Of a DNA stretch of 64,000 nucleotides, positions 1 through 51,534 are shown in pieces. The position numbers were made by a program, and so were the translations under genes. The stretch lies in NCBI GenBank assembly GCA_013298775.1, contig JAAFIV010000003.1, positions 141,460 through 205,459 on the forward strand. Direction: 5' to 3'. Origin of the DNA: Ignavibacteria bacterium (GTDB taxonomy: Bacteria > Bacteroidota > Ignavibacteria > Kapaibacteriales > UBA4661). The notes below the pieces were generated by a model. That model was given only the letters and a program-made list of their open reading frames with translations, did no database searches and had not been told where the DNA came from. Every line of letters starts with the position of its first letter. The first letter of the stretch is position 1.

Positions 1-1959
1 CCGCTTGGTGCGTGTCCGACCTGCGAAGGCTTTGGGCGCACGATGGGCATTGATGAGGATTTGGTGATTCCGAACAAGCAAAAATCCATCATGGACGGCG
101 CAGTGCATCCCTTCCAAACGCCCGCCCATACAAAGTATCAAACAGATTTATTGAAAGAAGCCGAAGCGCGTAAAATAGACCTCCGCAAGCCCATTGCCGC
201 TTTTACCAAAGAAGAATTTCGTTTCGTTTGGGAAGGCGCGGGCAAGTACGACGGCGTAACGGGCTTTTTCAAAATGGTCGAGGACAATTACCAAAAAATG
301 CACTACCGTGTGCTGATGAGCCGCTATCGGGGCTACACGCGCTGCTACGACTGCGGCGGTTCGCGCCTGAAATTGTCCGCTCGGCGCGTCTTTATTGGCG
401 CGAAGAGTATGAGTGAAGTTGTAAACATGACGCTTGAAGAAGCAGGAGAATTTTTCAACAGCCTGAAACTAAGCGAGTTCCAAGCGACCATCGCCGAGCG
501 CATTTTGAAGGAAATCACCACACGCCTCAGCCTCTTGAACGCAATGGGACTGGGCTACCTCACGCTCGACCGCTTGGCGCATACGCTCTCTGGCGGCGAG
601 GTGCAACGCATTAACCTTGCAACCTCGATTGGCTCATCGCTCGTCGGCGCGTTGTACGTGTTGGACGAACCCAGTATTGGTCTGCATCCGCGCGATACCG
701 AGCGCATGATTTCGGTCATGGAACGCCTTCGCAACTTAGGAAATACCGTGATTGTCGTCGAACACGACGAAGACATCATGCGCCGCGCCGATATGCTGAT
801 AGACATGGGACCAAAGGCGGGTGAGTTGGGCGGCGAGATTATTTTTCAAGGCACACACGCGGAAATTTTGAAGGATGAAAAATCGCTTACAGGCAAGTAT
901 TTATCGGGCAAGCTGGAGATTTCTATTCCCAAAACGCGCAATGCGGGCAATGGCAAAAGTATCGTCGTGAAGGGTGCGCATGAAAATAATTTGAAGAACA
1001 TTGATGTTGAAATTCCGCTTGGCAAAATGGTCGTCGTTACGGGCGTGAGCGGCTCTGGCAAATCTACCTTTGTGCATGATGTGTTCTACGGCGCGATGCT
1101 GCGGGCGTTGCAGCAACCCGTGAACAACGTCGGCAAGCACGAAGGCTTGGAAGGCGCACAAAATATAGCGCATATCGAAATGGTGGACCAGTCGCCGATT
1201 GGCAAATCGCCGCGCTCCACGCCCGCCACGTACACGAAAGCATTCGACTACATCCGCGATACCTTCTCCGACACGCAAGCCGCAAAGCAACTGGGCTGGA
1301 AGGCTGGTTATTTCTCCTTCAACGTTCCGGGCGGACGCTGCGAAACCTGTCAGGGCGATGGCATGGTGAAAATTGAAATGCAGTTTTTGGCAGATTTGTA
1401 CCTGCAATGCGAGGACTGTGGCGGTTCGCGCTACAAAAAGGAAGCTCGCAGTATTCTCTTCAAAAACAAATCTATCATTGATGTTTTGGATATGACGGTA
1501 GATGAAGCGGTGGAATTTTTTCAGGGTGAAAACCGCATTGTTGCTCGCTTGAAGCCCTTGCAGGATGTTGGTTTGGGCTATATGCGCTTGGGGCAGCCCG
1601 GCACGACACTCTCGGGCGGCGAGGCACAGCGCGTGAAATTGGCAACGCATTTGCTGGAAAAATCAAGCGAGGCGACCATGTTTATTTTCGATGAACCCAC
1701 CACAGGTCTGCATTTCGACGACATTGCGAAACTCATCAAAGCCTTCCAAGAACTCGTCAAGCGCGGTCATTCCTTGCTCATCGTCGAGCATAATCCCGAC
1801 GTGATGAAATGTGCGGATTGGATTCTGGACATGGGACCAGATGCCGGCGCGAAAGGCGGGACGCTCGTTGCGGCGGGAACGCCAGAAGACGTTGCAAAGG
1901 TGAAGGAATCGCACACGGGGCGGTTTTTGCGGGAAATGCTTACAGGTGTGAAGTTGTAA
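1..1959 (+). CDS. uvrA: Excinuclease ABC subunit A, C-terminal ~650 aa. The N-terminus lies upstream of the window.
   Basis: Frame 1 is open from base 1. It contains a CPTCEGFG zinc-finger-like motif and two ABC ATPase modules (GVSGSGKST Walker A, LSGGE signatures). Confidence 0.9.
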   Translation, partial: PLGACPTCEGFGRTMGIDEDLVIPNKQKSIMDGAVHPFQTPAHTKYQTDLLKEAEARKIDLRKPIAAFTKEEFRFVWEGAGKYDGVTGFFKMVEDNYQKMHYRVLMSRYRGYTRCYDCGGSRLKLSARRVFIGAKSMSEVVNMTLEEAGEFFNSLKLSEFQATIAERILKEITTRLSLLNAMGLGYLTLDRLAHTLSGGEVQRINLATSIGSSLVGALYVLDEPSIGLHPRDTERMISVMERLRNLGNTVIVVEHDEDIMRRADMLIDMGPKAGELGGEIIFQGTHAEILKDEKSLTGKYLSGKLEISIPKTRNAGNGKSIVVKGAHENNLKNIDVEIPLGKMVVVTGVSGSGKSTFVHDVFYGAMLRALQQPVNNVGKHEGLEGAQNIAHIEMVDQSPIGKSPRSTPATYTKAFDYIRDTFSDTQAAKQLGWKAGYFSFNVPGGRCETCQGDGMVKIEMQFLADLYLQCEDCGGSRYKKEARSILFKNKSIIDVLDMTVDEAVEFFQGENRIVARLKPLQDVGLGYMRLGQPGTTLSGGEAQRVKLATHLLEKSSEATMFIFDEPTTGLHFDDIAKLIKAFQELVKRGHSLLIVEHNPDVMKCADWILDMGPDAGAKGGTLVAAGTPEDVAKVKESHTGRFLREMLTGVKL

Positions 1960-29457: not shown

Positions 29458-31260
29458 ATGGCAAAAAAACGTTCACCCGCTCCCGCAACGACATCGGCTG
29501 CGCCTCGCGCCCCATTCGCATCTCGCTTTCTTTCCCGCTTTTCATGGTATCTTGTCCTCATGCCGCTTCTCACGCTGCTTTGGGGTTGGATATATTTTGA
29601 AAACGGTGAAATTATTGCGCTGAATAAAGGTTGTGGTTGGGACGGCGTAACCTACAAAAACGTTGTCTGGAGCTTGCAATGGAACAAAGCCCGCCCCGAT
29701 TACGCCGAGCGAAGCCGCTTGCGCATTGACCCCTACCGCGTACAGCGCATTGCACCAAGCGTGGCGGTGTATGGCGAGATGCAAGCCGCACGGTGGCTGT
29801 ATCAGCACGTAACGCCGATGTTTACTCGTGTTCCGGCGTGGTTGGAATGGAGCTACGAACAATATCCGCTTCCGCCGTGGTTTTTTCGGTGGTTTGCTGA
29901 TAATTCTATCAATTCAAACCAAGCGGCAAATGCCCAAAGCGTCGCACTGACGCTGGATAGCCTTGTTGCGGGATATTTCGTTTTTCACAGTTTGCTCATG
30001 CTGCTCGGAACGGCAGTGCTGTGGGCAATGACGGCGCGAAAGCTCAATCTTGGTGTAGCGGCGCGGTGGCTGGGCTTTTGCGGGCTTTTTGCGAATGTCG
30101 CCGTGATGAAAATGAGTTTGTATTATCCCACACTCACCGACACGACCGCGCTGTTTGTGGCAATGCTGATGCTGTATGCGTACATTGCCAACAGCGCGTG
30201 GTTGCTGCTTCCGGCGGCAGTGCTGGGCTTTTTTACCTTCCCGACGGCGATGTATGTTGCGGCGTTGCTGTTTCTCTTTCCGCGCAATATCGTTTTGCAC
30301 AATGAAGTAGCACCAGGAGAAGTAGCACCAGGAGAAGTAGCACAACCTGAAACACCAGCAATGACGGTCTTTGTACGAAATGTAAGCATTGGTGCGGTGG
30401 TGGTGGTATTGCTGGCAAGCGTGTATTTTGTGCTGATTGCAGAAGTGCGTTTTGTGGAGGTTGAGCCGCTTCAGCCGTTGTTGCTCATTCTCACGCTGCC
30501 CTTGCTCTGCGGGCAAGTATTCTTCACGGTTTCAAGGCTTGCAGCACAGTTTCCCGTGCAAGCGATAATGCGCCATTTCACGGAGCGCAAACATCTTGCT
30601 GGATACGCCCTGCGAGCCTTGATTTTGCTTGTTCTTTGGGCGGGATTGCTGTATTGGAAAAAGCAAATTGAAGACCCCACGCTTGCCGCGCCGATGAATA
30701 CAAGCCTATTTTTTGGTGGAAGTTTTGCCAGTGCGCTTGGAAAGCCCTTGTTGCCTGTGCTGGCGGGCGCGGTGTATTTTGGTCCAATTATTTTGGTGAT
30801 GATTCTTCGCTTTCGAGAATTTCTCAAAGCCGCATGGAATCTGGGTTTGGGCTATATGCTTGTGATAACGGCATTGCTGCTCATGGGAGCAATTATGTCG
30901 GAAACGCGGCAGCTTATCAATTTCTTGCCGTTTTTGGTGTTGGGTGTGGCGTACAGCCTTGATTCTGTCAGGCTTCCACGCATCGCGCTGGTGCTGTTCG
31001 CGCTTGTCGGCGTGATGGCAGCGAAAGTCTGGCTCCCGTTCAATTTTACAGGAATGGCGGAGCAAGCGGCAAACATCACAGGCGGCATCCATGCAACGTT
31101 TCCCTTGCAATACTACTTTATGAATCACGGACCATGGATGAGTTGGGCGAGTTATTTCCTGCAAGGAGCGTGTGCGCTTGTGGTGGCGGGGTTGCTGTGG
31201 TGGGTGCTGTCGCCGCAGTTTGCGGCGGAGTATGGGGAAAAGCAATCACAACAAAAATAA
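29458..31260 (+). CDS. Large polytopic membrane protein of unknown function with an internal (EVAPG)x3 tandem repeat
   Basis: More than 12 hydrophobic segments and a 15-bp coding tandem repeat at 30304-30348. The start position is uncertain (29407 or 29458). Confidence 0.5.
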   Translation: MAKKRSPAPATTSAAPRAPFASRFLSRFSWYLVLMPLLTLLWGWIYFENGEIIALNKGCGWDGVTYKNVVWSLQWNKARPDYAERSRLRIDPYRVQRIAPSVAVYGEMQAARWLYQHVTPMFTRVPAWLEWSYEQYPLPPWFFRWFADNSINSNQAANAQSVALTLDSLVAGYFVFHSLLMLLGTAVLWAMTARKLNLGVAARWLGFCGLFANVAVMKMSLYYPTLTDTTALFVAMLMLYAYIANSAWLLLPAAVLGFFTFPTAMYVAALLFLFPRNIVLHNEVAPGEVAPGEVAQPETPAMTVFVRNVSIGAVVVVLLASVYFVLIAEVRFVEVEPLQPLLLILTLPLLCGQVFFTVSRLAAQFPVQAIMRHFTERKHLAGYALRALILLVLWAGLLYWKKQIEDPTLAAPMNTSLFFGGSFASALGKPLLPVLAGAVYFGPIILVMILRFREFLKAAWNLGLGYMLVITALLLMGAIMSETRQLINFLPFLVLGVAYSLDSVRLPRIALVLFALVGVMAAKVWLPFNFTGMAEQAANITGGIHATFPLQYYFMNHGPWMSWASYFLQGACALVVAGLLWWVLSPQFAAEYGEKQSQQK

Positions 31261-31271
31261 TTCTCATCCCC

Positions 31272-31334
31272 CTGAAAGAAATTCCTCGCTCATGTGTCAT
31301 TCCTGAAATCCCGTGTTTACTCAATTCTTTTTCG
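31272..31334 (+). promoter_or_regulatory. Conserved ~65-bp 5' leader shared with the third beta-barrel paralog (36047-36108)
   Basis: CTGAAAGAAATTCCTCGCTCATGTGTCATTCCTGAAATCCCGTGTTTACTCAATTC is near-identical at both loci, directly upstream of paralogous genes. Confidence 0.6.
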
Positions 31335-31341
31335 ATACAAT

Positions 31342-32004
31342 ATGCGTTTGTTTCTCTTGTTCTTCGCGATAGCAATCGTGCTACCAGCAAGTACCTACGC
31401 CGCTTTTGGCGAAGGCACCGACAGCACCAAAACTGATTCCAATCAAGTACGAATGTACCAATACATAGGCGCAAGTGCCATGCTCACAACGGGACATCGC
31501 ACACTCGGCATCCCGCCAGAGTTTGCTGCACAGTTCGGAGATGCGCCGCTTGTGAGTTTTGGCTTGCATGGCGTGTGGCTAGGAGATTTGCTCTTCAAAA
31601 CCAACAAACTCCGCACCTCTTACGGCATTGAGAAAATCCTGAACGCTTATCCTTCGCCGCGTATCTTGGAAAATATTCGTTTTGCTGTTCAGTTTGGCTA
31701 CTACGTTTTTGAGCAGGAAATGACGCAGAAAGGGCTGAAAGCCTATCCTTTTCTTGGTTTTTCCTCAAGCATTTACTACGTCGATAATGGTGTTCGCCTG
31801 AGTGTTGCTTCTGTGGAAGGCGGCGCAGGTGTGGACTGGTTTGTCCCCCAGACACCGCTTCTCGTCGGCATTCAAGCCTCGTACAATCATAGTTGGAATC
31901 TTCGCGCGGCGCAGAATGTGGCGAATAATGTGGGTGGCGTTTGTGTGAAAGCGCAGGTTTCTATTTTTATTCGGGAGAAGAAGAATCCTTTGGGATGGGA
32001 CTGA
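31342..32004 (+). CDS. Outer-membrane beta-barrel protein, paralog A of three
   Basis: Signal peptide ending ASTYAAFG, alternating beta-strand pattern and a C-terminal aromatic residue (GWD). About 60% identical to 35310-35990. Confidence 0.55.
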   Translation: MRLFLLFFAIAIVLPASTYAAFGEGTDSTKTDSNQVRMYQYIGASAMLTTGHRTLGIPPEFAAQFGDAPLVSFGLHGVWLGDLLFKTNKLRTSYGIEKILNAYPSPRILENIRFAVQFGYYVFEQEMTQKGLKAYPFLGFSSSIYYVDNGVRLSVASVEGGAGVDWFVPQTPLLVGIQASYNHSWNLRAAQNVANNVGGVCVKAQVSIFIREKKNPLGWD

Positions 32005-32291
32005 AAGAAAGGCATGATACGTCCTTTTGAATGTGCCTCAACACAAGATTTTATCAAGCCTACAAGCCTCTTTTTTGATTTCTGCACTTTTAAGTGCTTT
32101 TCCCTGCAAGCCTGATGACACCTTGCTTTGAAGTTATTTTATTTTCAGGGTCAGTGAATTGTTGAATGCAGCTACATTGTACAACTGCATATTGTTCATA
32201 GAGATAATTCCATCTTTTTGTTATCTTACGCTATGAATAAATGTGGGTAGTATTGGTGTTCGATGTTCAACATTTTCCCTGATTCTGCCGT

Positions 32292-32831
32292 ATGCTTACT
32301 GCTACTGCTTTGGCGGATATTGATTCCGCTCTGCGCCATGCCGAACAAATGCGTTTGTTCGCAGACTGGCTCTTGCAACAACATGAACCCGTTCTTCTTC
32401 AAGCGGTCTTTCAGCCCTCGCAGAACGCTGTTTCGCTGTGTGCTGAGAGCGGCGAGAGTATGTTGCTGCCCTACGACGACATTCTTTACTGCCTCGTCAG
32501 CGAGCATTTTAGCGAGTTGTACTACCACGTCCCACCTCTCGGCAAAACGGTACAGAAATCCCTCCACAACAAGCCCCTGAAAGACTGGGAAGCAATGCTG
32601 CCCAGCACCCTTTTTGTGAAGGTGAATAAATCCTGCCTCATCAACAGCAAGCACGTGCGCGTTGTTGAGCGTTGGGACACGGGCAAGGGCTTTCTGCTGA
32701 CCATGAGCGACGGCAAAGAAATAAAAGTCTCGCGCAACCACGTGGAGAAGCTCCGCGCCCTGTGTGCGGCACGTTTCCCTATCCTGCAGGTGTATGGTCG
32801 TGGGGGGGGGGCAGACGAAAGAGCCGCGTAA
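32292..32831 (+). CDS. Stand-alone LytTR-family DNA-binding regulator. No receiver domain; it ends in a G10 homopolymer tract.
   Basis: The C-terminal FVKVNKSCLINSKHVRVVERWDTGKGFLLTMSDGKEIKVSRNHVEKLRAL matches the LytTR domain consensus. The N-terminal ~80 aa lack receiver-domain Asp motifs. Confidence 0.7.
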   Translation: MLTATALADIDSALRHAEQMRLFADWLLQQHEPVLLQAVFQPSQNAVSLCAESGESMLLPYDDILYCLVSEHFSELYYHVPPLGKTVQKSLHNKPLKDWEAMLPSTLFVKVNKSCLINSKHVRVVERWDTGKGFLLTMSDGKEIKVSRNHVEKLRALCAARFPILQVYGRGGGADERAA

Positions 32832-32914
32832 AAATAAGCCCTAACAATTTGGGAATAAAGAAGTAAACGCTGGTTTGAAATTTCAAAATTCTTTGCAGAA
32901 AATCACTGTACGGA

Positions 32915-33022
32915 GGACACTTTCCGCGAATAATACCTGCGCGAAGTGTCCTCTTCTTGTGTAAAAAACGCGAAAGTGGACACTTGAGGAAGTAATGCGG
33001 ACACTTCAGGAAAAGGCACTTG
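32915..33022 (+). promoter_or_regulatory. Cluster of five GGACACTT repeats, including two 9-bp direct repeats with a 12-bp spacer. Candidate LytTR box.
   Basis: GGACACTTT (32915), rc GGACACTTC (32943), GGACACTTG (32978), GGACACTTC (32999), GGCACTTG (33015). The 32978/32999 pair has the 9+12+9 LytTR-type geometry. Confidence 0.5.
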
Positions 33023-33242
33023 TGAAGAAAAAAGGAATCGTGTAGATTCGCACTTGTTACGCTGAAATGATAAACATTCTCAGGAATAACAAAACAAACG
33101 GCTCACCGCTTTTCTTCCGCTTGACGGTGAACCGCTTGTGAGGAAAAACCTCGCTGCATCAAGGAAAAGTTTTCGCGGACTTTCTTGACATGATGCAAAA
33201 CTACACATTTTTTACGAGCGGAAAAATTTTCTGGAGTTTTGT

Positions 33243-33464
33243 ATGAAAACCCAAAAACAACGTTTGGCGGCAATGATGTTTGCTGTGTTAGTCTTTGGAG
33301 CTGGTATGACACCAGTCCTTGCTAATTCAGCCGCTTTGAAACTTATTGTATTTGTTGGCGGTATTGTCCTAAATGGACCTCCAGAGATTTACACACCGAT
33401 GATGGTAGGTGCGGTCGTTGCTGGATTTACCCCTTTATGGCCAGTTGCTGTCGGTCTTTTATAA
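33243..33464 (+). CDS. 73-aa hydrophobic peptide with 2-3 TM segments, first gene of the AT-rich island
   Basis: MKTQKQR then three hydrophobic stretches. It is preceded by an 18-codon uORF (33190-33246) whose stop overlaps its ATG (ATGA). Confidence 0.35.
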   Translation: MKTQKQRLAAMMFAVLVFGAGMTPVLANSAALKLIVFVGGIVLNGPPEIYTPMMVGAVVAGFTPLWPVAVGLL

Positions 33465-33599
33465 TCGCCGCAAACTTATTTCACTCTACGTTTGCTTGAA
33501 ATTTGGATTTGATTTTCAAGGAAAATCTATTCAAAATTTCAAGCAAACGGAGGGTAAATAATTTCTATACATCCATCTTTTGAATAGTGCCAATCCATC

Positions 33600-34403
33600 A
33601 TGATACGAACCTATAAAACTCATATCTTATTTCATGGAATAGCATTAGCAGTTTTTTTTGCTTGTTTTTCTGCATACGCTTTTACATCCTTGAAAGTTGG
33701 ATTTCCCTTTGCAAACAAACTTATAGGAATCTTTCAAGCCGTCTGCGCCATCAGCCTAATACTTATCTTTTCACATAAAACCTGTCAAAGTATTCTCAAC
33801 AATATGAAAGGCTTATATGATGGTGTAGCTCGTGGTGATAGCTTGCTTTCTAAAAATTTTGCAATCATTATTGTCATTGCCTGTATCGCAATCACAGTTA
33901 TTCATTTAACCTATATTTCATCTTACATCCAATTCACAAGCCACTTGGATAATCCCCATGTTGAAAAACTATTATACGCCTTTACAATCATTGGTTCATC
34001 GGTAGGAATTCTTATAAATTGGCTGCTATTATCGGCATTATCGTATTTATTGGCAACAGCTCTTGACATTCATCACAATTTTAATTTTTATGTCTCTGCC
34101 GTCGGTATAGGGCAGATAGGGATGTTTCTTGCGATATTTACTGCATTCCTGATGAGTTTACTTACATTAGACTCAATGATGTCAATCTCGCATTTTGCTG
34201 AAATGTCCATAAATTCTTATGAGCGAAATATGATTGGTAAATTCGGTGAATTTGTTATGCTATTTATCATTTGCTGCTTCTTAATGCTCAATGAAAAAAT
34301 ATCTTCAAAATATGCCGTAATTATAGCATTTGTGCCAACTCTACTTGTCGGTTTCATCAGTGAACTTGTAAAATTTTTGACCCAAAATTTATTCTTGCAA
34401 TGA
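33600..34403 (+). CDS. Polytopic membrane protein (Yip1-like?), AT-rich island
   Basis: 267 aa, 6-7 TM, ~35% GC against a ~50% background. It overlaps the next gene by 4 bp (ATGA). Confidence 0.5.
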   Translation: MIRTYKTHILFHGIALAVFFACFSAYAFTSLKVGFPFANKLIGIFQAVCAISLILIFSHKTCQSILNNMKGLYDGVARGDSLLSKNFAIIIVIACIAITVIHLTYISSYIQFTSHLDNPHVEKLLYAFTIIGSSVGILINWLLLSALSYLLATALDIHHNFNFYVSAVGIGQIGMFLAIFTAFLMSLLTLDSMMSISHFAEMSINSYERNMIGKFGEFVMLFIICCFLMLNEKISSKYAVIIAFVPTLLVGFISELVKFLTQNLFLQ

Positions 34404-34990
34404 AAATCTTTAGACGCTTTTTGCAGCTATCAGAACTACAACAAACATATATCCTTTTACTCTGTTTGTTAGGGGCATTATTGATAGGGTTGTTTTGTGG
34501 CATAAAATCTTCAGCAAGTGTAAGTAACACTTTAGTTTTACAGGCAAGTAGGGATGCTAATATTATTGAACAAGCTACTTTTGTAACATTTCAAAAAATA
34601 GCTGTAAACAACCTATTATGCGCTGGTCTGTTACTCACAAGTTTCTTTTCCTTTGGCTTAATACCAATTTTGATAATTGCTTACAACGGCATCATGATTG
34701 GCTATACCCTGAAACTTGGATGCAACCAAATTGGTGTTTTACCCACTTTAGCATTAGTCTTGCCGCATGGTGTTGTAGAAATGACAGCAATTTTATTTGC
34801 TGCATTTTTAGGAATGCGCATATCCATTGCTTTCATTGAGTTTTTGCAGTCCGATATGGAAAACAAACGATTTTTTTCAATGTTATTTAGTACCCAAAAT
34901 ATTCTTCTACTGGGATTGATACTCATTGCCGCCTTAATTGAATCTTTTATTACACCATACATTTACGACTATGTTCTGCATTCAATCTAA
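34400..34990 (+). CDS. DUF95/SpoIIM-like membrane protein, AT-rich island
   Basis: LPHGVVEMTAILFAAFLGM resembles the conserved HG..E..A motif of SpoIIM/DUF95. It has 5-6 TM segments. Confidence 0.5.
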   Translation: MKIFRRFLQLSELQQTYILLLCLLGALLIGLFCGIKSSASVSNTLVLQASRDANIIEQATFVTFQKIAVNNLLCAGLLLTSFFSFGLIPILIIAYNGIMIGYTLKLGCNQIGVLPTLALVLPHGVVEMTAILFAAFLGMRISIAFIEFLQSDMENKRFFSMLFSTQNILLLGLILIAALIESFITPYIYDYVLHSI

Positions 34991-35309: not shown

Positions 35310-35990
35310 ATGTCTTACCATTTCTCCCTCCGTTGTTTGGTTTTCCTATCCATTGTATTTCTTACTACACCGAGTATATACGCTGCTTTGGGCGAAGGCA
35401 CAGATAGCACCAAAACTGACTCTACACAACTGCGAATGTATCAATACTTGGGCGCAAGCTCTATGCTCACAAGCGGACACCGCACACTTGGCATCCCTCC
35501 GGAATTTGCTACGCAGTTCGGTGATGCACCGCTTGTGAGTGTTGGTTTTTATGGCGTGTGGGTAGGAGATTTACTCTTTAAAACTAGTAAACTCCGCACG
35601 GCTGCTAGCTTTGAGAAGATACTTAATGCTTATCCGTCATCGCGCATATTTGAAAACTGGCGTTTTATGGCACAGTTTGGCTACTATGTCGCTGAACAAG
35701 AGAGTAATAAACCTAAAGGACTGAAAGCCTATCCTTTCCTTGGGTATAGCTGGAATTTATACTACATAGACAATAGTGTTCGTATGAGCATTCTTTCTGT
35801 GGACGGCGGGGCGGGCGCTGACTGGTTTATCCCCCAAACCCCAGTGCTGGTCGGCGTTCAAGCCTCCTACAATCACAGTTGGAATCTTAGTGCTGCAAAG
35901 GAAGTAGTAAATAATGTAAGTGGTTTGTCTATTAAAGCACACATCGCAATTTTTATTTTTGAGAAAAAAAATCCTTTCGGCTGGAACTAA
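35310..35990 (+). CDS. Outer-membrane beta-barrel protein, paralog B
   Basis: Collinear with paralog A (GEGTDSTKTDS...RMYQY...HRTLGIPPEF...NHSWNL...GWN). Confidence 0.55.
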   Translation: MSYHFSLRCLVFLSIVFLTTPSIYAALGEGTDSTKTDSTQLRMYQYLGASSMLTSGHRTLGIPPEFATQFGDAPLVSVGFYGVWVGDLLFKTSKLRTAASFEKILNAYPSSRIFENWRFMAQFGYYVAEQESNKPKGLKAYPFLGYSWNLYYIDNSVRMSILSVDGGAGADWFIPQTPVLVGVQASYNHSWNLSAAKEVVNNVSGLSIKAHIAIFIFEKKNPFGWN

Positions 35991-36046: not shown

Positions 36047-36108
36047 TTCCTCGCTCATGTGTCATTCCAGAAATCCCGTTTTTACTCAATTCCTTTTGAA
36101 AAAATATG
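36047..36108 (+). promoter_or_regulatory. Second copy of the conserved 5' leader (see 31272-31334)
   Basis: Near-identical to the leader of paralog A. Confidence 0.6.
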
Positions 36109-36816
36109 CGCTTGCTTCTTTATTTCTGGATAATAGCAATCGTGCTACCATCAAACATTTACGCGCTCGGCATGGAGAGCGATAGCACACAAACTCGCAT
36201 GGGTAGCGTGTACGCGGGTATTACCCCAGCAAATACGGCAACCGCCGACAGCCTCCGTGCAGATTCAGCAAAGGTGCGGATGCGGCAATACGTTGGAGCC
36301 GCCTCGACGCTTACTACCAATCACCGCTCGCTTGGTCTTCCAGCAGAATACGCTGCACAGTACGGAAATATGCCGCTTTCCAGCGTTGGCATCAATTTTA
36401 TTGCTATCGGCAATTTCCTTTTCCAAACCAATCGTTTGCGTTCTTCCGTCACATTTGAACGCTTTGTGAATGTCTATCCCTCGAACAAAATACTGGAAAA
36501 TTTTCGAGAATGTCTTCAAATCGGCTACTACGTCTATGAGCGAGATGCTATCAAGCTGTATCCATTCATTGGCGGCACGGTGGGATTGTACTACATAGAT
36601 AATGGCATTCGATTGGGTGTGTTTGCAGCAGAAGCAGGTGCGGGGCTTGATTACTTCATTCCCAAGACCTCGCTGCTTGCTGGACTACAAGTTTCCTACA
36701 ATCATACGTGGAATATTCGGTCTGCGGCGGATGCTGTCGGTAATATCGGCGGTGTGGCAGTGCGGGCGCACGTTTCCATCCTCTTTAGCGAGCGCACCAC
36801 GTGGTGGGGCTGGTAA
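36106..36816 (+). CDS. Outer-membrane beta-barrel protein, paralog C (more divergent)
   Basis: Same domain order with a longer N-terminal Thr/Ala-rich segment. It ends WWGW. Confidence 0.55.
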   Translation: MRLLLYFWIIAIVLPSNIYALGMESDSTQTRMGSVYAGITPANTATADSLRADSAKVRMRQYVGAASTLTTNHRSLGLPAEYAAQYGNMPLSSVGINFIAIGNFLFQTNRLRSSVTFERFVNVYPSNKILENFRECLQIGYYVYERDAIKLYPFIGGTVGLYYIDNGIRLGVFAAEAGAGLDYFIPKTSLLAGLQVSYNHTWNIRSAADAVGNIGGVAVRAHVSILFSERTTWWGW

Positions 36817-39408: not shown

Positions 39409-39536
39409 TCTTGTGAGGCTCTCACTTCCTAGTGAGGGTCTCACTTCCTAGTGAGGGTCTCACTTCATCACTTAAAAGTAAAAAAGTGAGACCCTTAACC
39501 TGCGAAGACGCAGGAATTGAGAGCCTCACATTCGCC
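39409..39536. repeat. Family-6 repeat cluster (GTGAGGCTCTCACTTCCTAG x3 direct, then inverted GTGAGACCC ... GAGAGCCTCAC)
   Basis: Direct reading. It lies downstream of the TonB receptor gene. Confidence 0.75.
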
Positions 39537-40568: not shown

Positions 40569-41342
40569 ATGCTGAAATTCACATTGCCCACACACAAGAT
40601 TCTGTCAAGTGTTGAGGCTTTTTTTGTTGTCTATTGCGGATGCTGTTTGTTCCTGCTGGAAACCGCACCAGTGCTTGCGCAGTGGAGTCCCAATTCTCCT
40701 CGCGCTGAGCGTGCCTACGACGCACATTTGCAAGGCTACAATGCGCTTTTCCCTGCCGAACATGGCGCGTACTATATGCTTCCAATGGGTATTGCTTCTG
40801 GTGGCATGAGCGATGCGTTTGGGAGCAATCCTGCATATTTTTTTTCGGGTTTACCACGACAATGGTTCTTGCAAAGCACGATGATTCATTACGACCGTGT
40901 TATCATTGAAACCTTTCAAACAAGCGGTATTCTGCGCCTTGATTCGGCAGACACGGAAATAGCTACCTTCGGCAATACGCTTGGTTTCGGCTACATCGTT
41001 TTTGATACCACGCTCTCGCAAACAACCAAACTCAATCTCTTTCCTTTCCTCAGCACTGGCGTTCTGACGAGCCGCTTTTTTCAGCCGCGCATCACCTTCA
41101 GCGCGAGCCTGAGTGCGCTTTATACGATTGATATTTCTCAGCGTACTGCAATGCGGCGCAATGTAGGATTTGCTGTGCCAATTCGCATAGATATTGGCTA
41201 CACACGGCATTATACCGCCGTGCAGTCTGGCTTGGAAGATATTGGTGACGGTGGAGGCGTGTTTTTGCGCGTGAGCGTGGGCATAGGACCGCATTATTCG
41301 GCGGTTGTAGCGGGGACATACGACACGGTTGTACAGGAATAA
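40569..41342 (+). CDS. Hypothetical secreted or outer-membrane protein
   Basis: Signal-peptide-like N-terminus (MLKF... CGCCLFLLETAPVLAQ). No recognised family. Confidence 0.35.
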   Translation: MLKFTLPTHKILSSVEAFFVVYCGCCLFLLETAPVLAQWSPNSPRAERAYDAHLQGYNALFPAEHGAYYMLPMGIASGGMSDAFGSNPAYFFSGLPRQWFLQSTMIHYDRVIIETFQTSGILRLDSADTEIATFGNTLGFGYIVFDTTLSQTTKLNLFPFLSTGVLTSRFFQPRITFSASLSALYTIDISQRTAMRRNVGFAVPIRIDIGYTRHYTAVQSGLEDIGDGGGVFLRVSVGIGPHYSAVVAGTYDTVVQE

Positions 41343-41400
41343 TTGGAATAATTGGAATAATTAGAATAATTGGAATAATTAGAATAATTAGAATAATTCC
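41337..41400. repeat. Tandem 9-bp repeat (GAATAATTR) x7
   Basis: ggaataattggaataattggaataattagaataattggaataattagaataattagaataattcc. Confidence 0.85.
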
Positions 41401-51430: not shown

Positions 51431-51534
51431 TGTGAGTTTGGTGTGAGGGTCTCGCTTCCTCAGCGAGGCTCTCACTTCCTCACCACAATCTATTACCGAA
51501 GTGAGACCCTCGCTTGAGAAGCGAGAGCCTCACA
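51431..51534. repeat. Family-6 repeat cluster
   Basis: gtgagggtctcgcttcctcagcgaggctctcacttcctcacc ... gtgagaccctcgcttgagaagcgagagcctcacacc. Confidence 0.75.

Follow-up and report, generated by a model that had tools for sequence, protein, structure and literature searches.

Homopolymer phase variation is, to our knowledge, known almost entirely from host-adapted pathogens, in which it turns surface or modification genes ON and OFF. Regulator genes can also be phase-variable, the C-run of Bordetella bvgS being an example. Campylobacter jejuni lacks functional mismatch repair, and its G/C tracts have slippage rates of 1e-4 to 1.6e-3 per division, with lengths mainly kept at G9-G10 (PMC8355987). 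The poly-A/T tracts of flgR and flgS in the same species are, as summarised there from Hendrixson (2006, 2008, cited in PMC8355987), shorter than 7, and their slippage is not regarded as truly reversible. The closest precedent for the locus described here comes from the same protein family and is the 3'-terminal poly(A) tract of Staphylococcus aureus agrA. Gain of one A in this tract (p.Ile238fs) has been found in 561 genomes from several clonal complexes, is the most frequent agr frameshift and delays agr activation (PMC8768832), and changes of the tract are experimentally reversible (PMC6686034); an allele arising by slipped mispairing is credited to Traber and Novick (2006), as cited in PMC6686034 and PMC8768832. 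A further comparison is provided by the LytTR Regulatory Systems (LRS) of the HdrRM/BrsRM type, which carry LytTR direct repeats just upstream of the promoter (PMC6193735). A search of the literature for LytTR proteins combined with homopolymeric phase variation yielded only incidental co-occurrences of the two.

The locus considered here lies in a window of 64 kb, the whole stretch of DNA that was analysed. Its stand-alone LytTR regulator is encoded by a gene with ten consecutive G near the 3' end. As in agrA, the homopolymer lies at the extreme 3' end, the gene product is in both cases a LytTR-domain transcription factor, and a slip of one base changes or extends the C-terminus while the DNA-binding domain is retained, the activity of AgrA being modulated (delayed) rather than abolished. 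There are also differences. AgrA is a Firmicute two-component response regulator with a receiver, whereas the window protein is a stand-alone regulator from an Ignavibacteria/Kapaibacteria-like bacterium; the A run of agrA is shorter (reportedly 7) and touches the last residue of the fold, whereas runs of G9-G13 precede a disordered tail in the window family; and frameshifted alleles have been seen in agrA genomes but not in the window family. With the poly-G/C loci of Campylobacter, the window tract shares its type, its length range (G9-G13, for which indel rates of 1e-4 to 1e-3 per division have been measured), its location within an ORF and a length that differs among related strains. Campylobacter-type loci, however, are many per genome, turn surface or modification genes ON and OFF by truncation, and occur in host-adapted bacteria without mismatch repair; the window tract is one in 64 kb, lies in a regulator gene of an environmental lineage, leaves the domains untruncated and has been seen only as in-frame alleles. 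In flgR, flgS and bvgS, too, the homopolymer lies in a regulator or sensor gene, so that one slip reprograms a regulon, but there the slips inactivate the protein, whereas the LytTR domain of the window protein stays intact.

The regulator gene and its G10 tract

The regulator has 179 residues, and LytTR is its only domain. The Pfam LytTR profile (PF04397) matches residues 56-157 with an E-value of 2.6e-16 and 60.1 bits, above the gathering cut-off of 22.6, and PDB entry 3d6w is matched by sequence profile (E 6e-07). The AF2 model (mean pLDDT 79.5) consists of a single long N-terminal helix (residues 2-39), the beta fold typical of the family (46-146) and two further short helices (148-158 and 164-167), with residues 171-179 disordered (pLDDT below 50). 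In a Foldseek search, this model matched 3d6w (E 1.7e-08, TM 0.81 normalised to the target) and also ComE (4cbv) and AgrA (4g4k/3bs1), the last with 17-18% sequence identity in the Foldseek alignment. Both the profile score and the modelled beta fold place the protein in the LytTR family. The surrounding genes are chromosomal housekeeping genes and encode UvrA, MurG, a cytochrome b, a biotin carboxylase, NusA and a TonB-dependent receptor. The best matches of NusA reach 63% identity in an Ignavibacteria MAG and 59% in a Kapaibacteriales MAG, which places the source in an uncultured FCB-group lineage without a close relative among the species-representative genomes.

The presence of a G10 homopolymer in the 3' end of this gene, reported in the initial annotation, is confirmed by direct reading of the window sequence, although the coordinates given there (32803-32812) were off by one base; the exactly ten consecutive G lie where Table 1 places them. 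The codons across the tract, CGT GGG GGG GGG GCA GAC GAA AGA GCC GCG TAA, translate to ...YGR GGG ADERAA and a stop, as had been read for the ...GRGGGADERAA tail. The tract starts 14 residues past the end of the LytTR domain and codes for the start of a six-residue tail that is predicted to be disordered.

Such a run is exceptional in its surroundings. Elsewhere in the window, runs of G or C attain a length of 6 at most. Under an iid model, 0.085 G/C runs of at least 10 are expected per 64 kb, and as run counts decay about 0.15-fold per extra base, the extrapolated expectation for this length is about 0.0015. In 256 kb drawn from 80 related FCB-group genomes, G/C runs are never longer than 7. 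A chance origin of the tract was ruled out by these run-length statistics and by the background loci from related genomes. High-rate slippage at contingency loci calls for about 7-8 or more G/C, a length that is exceeded by G10 here and by the G9, G12 and G13 of the orthologues.

Table 1. Positions of the features of the locus and of the G tracts in orthologous contigs (numbering of each sequence).
Feature	Sequence	Position	Strand	Remarks
Stand-alone LytTR regulator gene, 179 aa, without receiver domain	Window	32292..32831	+	Pfam PF04397, AF2 and Foldseek
Hexanucleotide repeat (ACTGCT)2	Window	32298..32309	+	Codons 3-6 of the LytTR gene
Hexanucleotide repeat, 3 copies	L001	428-445		Orthologue 90% identical to window protein
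G10 homopolymer	Window (P0001, 100% identity)	32802..32811	+	Codons for Gly171-173 and first base of Ala174
G13 homopolymer	L001, Logan SRR7244341 (P0002)	938-950		90% identity to window protein
G9 homopolymer	L082, Logan SRR13020431 (P0003)	1626-1634		48% identity to window protein
G9 homopolymer	L084, JGI metagenome (P0003)	1723-1731		48% identity to window protein
G9 homopolymer	L085, second JGI metagenome (P0003)	1751-1759		48% identity to window protein
G12 homopolymer	L083, JGI 3300037311 (P0111)	612-623		45% identity to window protein
Tail-coding segment	Window	32812..32866	+	Read in three frames; 100% identical in L001
Stop with G10 (native)	Window	32829-31		Tail ADERAA
Stop with G9	Window	32842-44		Tail QTKEPRKNKP
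Stop with G11	Window	32864-66		Tail RRKSRVKISPNNLGIKK
Inverted repeat GAGGACACTTTCCGC / GCGCGAAGTGTCCTC	Window	32913..32953	+	Two GGACACTT cores, then T-rich stretch; window clade only
Two direct repeats	Window	32973..33012	+	GGACACTT cores 32978-85 and 32999-33006; 21 bp start to start
Putative Bacteroidetes-type promoter	Window	33020..33050	+	TTG, 20 nt, then TAGATTCG; from alignment
Inverted repeat GGCTCACCG ... CGGTGA(A/G)CC	Window	33098-33137		Kept in L001, L083 and L084
Gene for 73-aa hydrophobic small protein	Window	33243..33464	+	First gene past the box
Gene for Yip1-like membrane protein	Window	33600-34403		After the 73-aa gene
Gene for SpoIIM-like membrane protein	Window	34400-34990		After the Yip1-like gene
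Paralogous signal-peptide protein genes, 226-236 aa	Window	31294-32004; 35310-35990; 36106-36816		Flank the LytTR locus
Perfect 15-bp tandem repeat GAAGTAGCACCAGGA	Window	30304-30343		2.7 copies, coding EVAPG repeats

Orthologues, tract lengths and codon choice

The family was searched by word-indexed phmmer, by two profile searches over 5.8 billion protein clusters and by exhaustive phmmer over 1.84 billion representatives. Among those collections it has four distinct members in total, all from Ignavibacteria/Kapaibacteria-like bacteria, and the remaining matches are distant LytTR proteins with E-values above 1e-9. A cluster look-up for the family added only an alternative start call of P0003. 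A protein scan of species-representative genome contigs gave no more orthologues or strain variants, and a variable-gap DNA pattern together with a protein-alignment scan gave no further copies in the JGI metagenome contigs. The evidence base is therefore a small sample of four distinct sequences from three deep lineages on six contigs, and the tract lengths are the values of consensus contigs, in which minority length variants stay invisible.

When the contigs were read directly, an uninterrupted G run was found at the homologous codon in 4/4 family members, and the GGG(G) peptide is invariant across the four proteins. Every G run is followed by CA(G/A), and the frame that is used gives exactly six residues past the glycines: ADERAA, NNIHLF or SKAHLL. 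The initial annotation had proposed a comparison with orthologues in related genomes and had held that an absence of length variation would speak against slippage; instead, G9, G10, G12 and G13 were found, so that the length is polymorphic among related strains. Inside each clade the lengths differ by exactly 3 (10 vs 13 at 90% protein identity, and 9 vs 12), and if frames were random, both clades would keep the frame with a probability of about 1/9. The L082, L084 and L085 contigs are identical in DNA and represent one strain in three samples, with G9 in 3/3 contigs. None of these contigs, six in number with four distinct sequences, has a tract that is out of frame, and the protein collections that were searched contain no frameshifted allele.

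Two minor observations concern these contigs. JGI 3300037311 holds two family members, L083 (G12) and L085 (G9), which are 67% identical over 695 aligned nt and represent either two co-existing populations or two paralogues of one genome. In addition, the (ACTGCT) repeat near the start of the gene, present twice in the window and three times in L001, whose protein is 90% identical, is the sole indel of the coding sequence between these two besides the G tract; both coding indels are thus in-frame repeat slippages.

Gly codon usage in 40 long window ORFs ranges from 9.8% for GGG, the rarest, to 49.7% for GGC, and neighbouring GGG-GGG codons in those ORFs are confined to the G tract. Codon bias was ruled out as the source of the run, GGG being the least used Gly codon. 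At 4-fold sites of identical residues, third-base identity between the deep lineages is 30-55%, which is near saturation, and other conserved Gly columns switch among GGC, GGT, GGA and GGG, whereas the tract is never interrupted. By codon usage, the probability of such runs in three independent lineages is about 1e-8, a crude estimate. Because the run stays uninterrupted despite the rarity of GGG and near-saturated synonymous sites, the homopolymer itself, beyond the glycines alone, appears to be under selection, as is expected of the repeat in a contingency locus; it recurs in three deep lineages. This sequence comparison indicates that something acts on the tract at the nucleotide level, as selection for three to four glycines alone would not keep a G run. 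Nucleotide-level conservation combined with length variation also means that the homopolymer is neither chance nor an assembly artefact. A tract is thus fixed at one codon of a transcription factor across proteins of 45-48% identity in uncultured environmental FCB-group bacteria, where only the last residues can be altered by it, and in annotation practice it should be left uncorrected.

One-base slips, the C-terminal tail and competing explanations

In silico changes of tract length leave the LytTR domain untouched in all three frames. All three window frames terminate within 55 nt, giving tails of 6, 10 or 17 aa (Table 1). In L082, where the native tail is NNIHLF, one shifted frame encodes Q and then a stop and the other 26 residues; in L083, with the native tail SKAHLL, the corresponding frames encode Q and then a stop, and 29 residues. 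That gain or loss of one G alters the C-terminal tail and the stop, as had been proposed, therefore holds. The stop had also been said to shift relative to the downstream repeat box; this shift is real but small (13-35 nt), leaving the stop still at least 49 nt upstream of the box, and we know of no way in which the position of the stop would act on the box. ON/OFF truncation was ruled out by the three-frame translations, and a change of tract length does not switch expression or function ON and OFF in the manner of a contingency locus, as the full LytTR domain is kept in all frames. With classical ON/OFF switching excluded, the only possible effect of a slip is on the C-terminal tail.

Each clade preserves the reading frame together with six tail residues, and NNIHLF and SKAHLL share H-L-[FL], with a synonymous change in the His codon and the stop at the same position, which suggests that the tail is under some constraint; between the two clades, the tail sequence is not conserved. 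As the tail seems constrained, phenotypic effects would follow from the ±1 slips to which such tracts are prone. If so, neutral retention of the run is hard to explain, and a selected mutable site is favoured. Of the slipped-strand phase variation suggested in the initial annotation, the homopolymer of slippage length, its variability and its uninterrupted retention stand; the ON/OFF model does not fit, within-clade steps are of 3 only, and no frameshifted allele is on record.

We tentatively favour, with a little less than even confidence, the reading that the tract is a hypermutable, slippage-prone site that modulates the regulator through its C-terminus and does not turn the gene off. The homopolymer would be a contingency-type simple sequence repeat, sited exactly at the boundary between the folded part of the regulator and the short disordered tail. 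Slipped-strand mispairing during replication would add or remove one G, leaving the DNA-binding domain intact and exchanging the slightly acidic ADERAA for a basic tail of 10 residues (G9/G12) or a strongly basic one of 17 residues (G8/G11). Slippage of RNA polymerase, or of tRNA-Gly on the rare GGG codons, possibly contributes. The outcome would be subpopulations whose regulators are unequal in activity, stability or partner binding, and the output of the downstream GGACACTT direct-repeat promoter, which would drive small membrane proteins, would differ between them. Switching of this kind would modulate the regulator reversibly instead of turning it ON and OFF. In this proposal we infer that slippage takes place at a useful rate in the source organism, that the tail influences regulator function and that the regulator acts on the adjacent repeat box. 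If the switching is real, contingency-locus logic would reach the regulators of free-living bacteria and gain a graded mechanism, exchange of the C-terminal tail, and the isolated case of the agrA poly(A) tract would become a recurring way to tune LytTR regulators.

A more far-reaching version, which we consider unlikely, holds that the G tract is a selected "tail switch" and the defining feature of this small family of orphan LytTR regulators. Slippage of DNA, RNA or the ribosome would move the protein between the six-residue tail form and forms with charged, basic or absent tails. The small or non-polar tail ends (RAA, HLF, HLL) might then be a signal for C-terminal degradation or partner binding, and the forms with charged, basic or absent tails would escape such control. 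If true, free-living, uncultured Ignavibacteria/Kapaibacteria-like bacteria would form subpopulations in which a membrane-protein regulon is bistable, and a graded, domain-sparing and deeply conserved phase variation of a regulator would exist beyond host-adapted pathogens.

Other explanations of the tract have to be weighed against slippage. The three to four glycines could be a flexible hinge before the short tail, the homopolymer being a historical accident retained by descent, without functional switching, and a mild mutational liability in which only rare ±3 indels are tolerated. The invariant peptide, the within-clade differences in multiples of three with no frameshifted allele, the shared G9 of one strain in three samples and the disorder of the tail in the AF2 model would all suit this account. 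A hinge, however, requires glycines and not G runs, and GGC rather than GGG is the codon most used for them. Because synonymous change between lineages has nearly saturated the third positions in the rest of the gene, a tract that was only a liability should have been broken by a GGG-to-GGC change in at least one of the three deep lineages, and it never was. The hinge is the main rival reading, but we regard it as rather doubtful. An artefact of sequencing or assembly, with a true run that is shorter or interrupted, is extremely improbable. Homopolymers are known error sites, and the initial annotation had raised assembly error for this tract; this is very unlikely, because the six contigs, which carry four distinct sequences and come from independent assemblies, are in frame without exception. 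The NCBI genome and the Logan and JGI assemblies, from at least five samples, place G9-G13 at one codon, each in frame with a six-residue tail, and the three separate assemblies of one strain agree exactly.

Programmed recoding, in which RNA polymerase stuttering or ±1 slippage of tRNA-Gly yields a fixed mix of two to three C-terminal isoforms from one genotype, would give the same outcome at the protein level as slippage of DNA. A perfect homopolymer permits re-pairing of tRNA-Gly in any frame, the rare GGG favours pausing, and each of the three frames closes within 6-17 codons, which would make every product a complete regulator; the nucleotide-level conservation fits recoding as well as it fits DNA slippage. 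On the other hand, no stimulatory RNA structure is predicted near the tract (z-scores -0.7 to +0.6), the surroundings of the G run folding no better than shuffles in any of the four lineages. The alternative-frame tails are unlike between clades (Q and a stop, and 26-29 aa, vs 10 and 17 aa), and the tract length varies, whereas a tuned signal would resist variation. Furthermore, all bacterial transcriptional slippage sites that we know of so far are A/T runs. We consider recoding quite unlikely. Rfam has no match in the tract region, a tRNA-Cys being its sole match in the window, and an intramolecular quadruplex is unlikely, nine or ten G being too few.

Downstream repeats, putative promoter and neighbouring genes

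The window contains four exact GGACACTT octamers, all within 32915-33006. Two are the cores of an inverted repeat in the window clade, which may be the terminator of the regulator gene, an additional set of binding sites, or both. The other two belong to the box of direct repeats, where the repeat has the form GGACACTT(C/G)A in two copies. This direct-repeat pair is kept in L001, L082, L083 and L084, about 150 nt downstream of the regulator gene, and its geometry is typical of LytTR sites, which are paired direct repeats of about 9 bp separated by about 12 bp; it is the presumed target of the regulator. After the repeats, a TTG and, 20 nt further on, a TAnnTT(T/C)G element, similar to the -33/-7 elements of Bacteroidetes (promoter consensus TTTG/TAnnTTTG), occur in all four lineages and are followed by a conserved leader. 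Repeats and promoter-like elements together span 32973-33050 in the window, about 1733-1800 in L082 and about 742-815 in L083; the counterparts of the promoter-like element of the window are TAAATTTG in L082 and TAGCTTTG in L083. The putative promoter would drive the next transcription unit, whose first gene, for the 73-aa hydrophobic protein, follows the regulator gene after 411 nt of intergenic DNA in which the promoter-like box lies. The regulator is probably an activator of this downstream unit.

This arrangement can be compared with the LRS. In both, a stand-alone LytTR protein without a receiver domain, here of 179 aa, is accompanied by small membrane proteins encoded nearby, and paired direct repeats with 12-bp spacers (21-bp periodicity) lie about 13 nt upstream of a -35-like element. 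The repeats of the LRS, however, precede a two-gene operon of regulator and inhibitor, which provides autoregulation, whereas those of the window lie downstream of the regulator gene; upstream of it (32000-32300), no GGACACTT-like or 21-bp-spaced repeats of the kind expected for positive autoregulation were found. Moreover, the genes downstream vary from lineage to lineage, and no LRS has been reported with a homopolymer tract.

The genes that follow the box differ by lineage in the stretches compared (window 33243-34990, L083 1023-1394 and L084 1901-2906): L083 encodes a 123-aa lipoprotein-like product, and L084 an unrelated 122-aa protein. Judged from these contigs, regulator and promoter appear to form a module whose cargo can be exchanged. 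The leader of about 200 nt that separates the box from the following start codon contains conserved blocks, even though the genes after it have no relation to each other between lineages; Rfam gives no match to it. These blocks include the inverted repeat at 33098-33137 and TTACGAG.GGAAAAAT ... TGGAGTTTT.TATG. This leader may have a regulatory role.

Exact-match searches with neighbouring proteins from the window returned one same-strain contig, L086 (Logan SRR9948930), which is 100% identical to window positions 33017-34171, begins right after the GGACACTT repeats and misses the tract. The same strain is therefore present in another public run, in which the short-read assembly breaks at the repeat box.

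Finally, several features of the wider window should be mentioned. Of the three paralogous signal-peptide protein genes around the LytTR locus, the second and third encode proteins 68% and 47% identical to the first, and none of the three is matched by Pfam or NCBIfam. In L001, the product of the gene that precedes the regulator has a C-terminus similar to these paralogues. The EVAPG repeats sit in a 617-aa multi-pass membrane protein without a family match. Among the repeat arrays at 41336-41398, 39413-39466 and 51445-51482, the first consists of a 9-bp unit, GGAATAATT, repeated 7 times, and two separate arrays of about 19-20 nt, lying after long genes, share a (G)CTCTCACTTCCT(C/A)-like core and may represent a dispersed repeat family.
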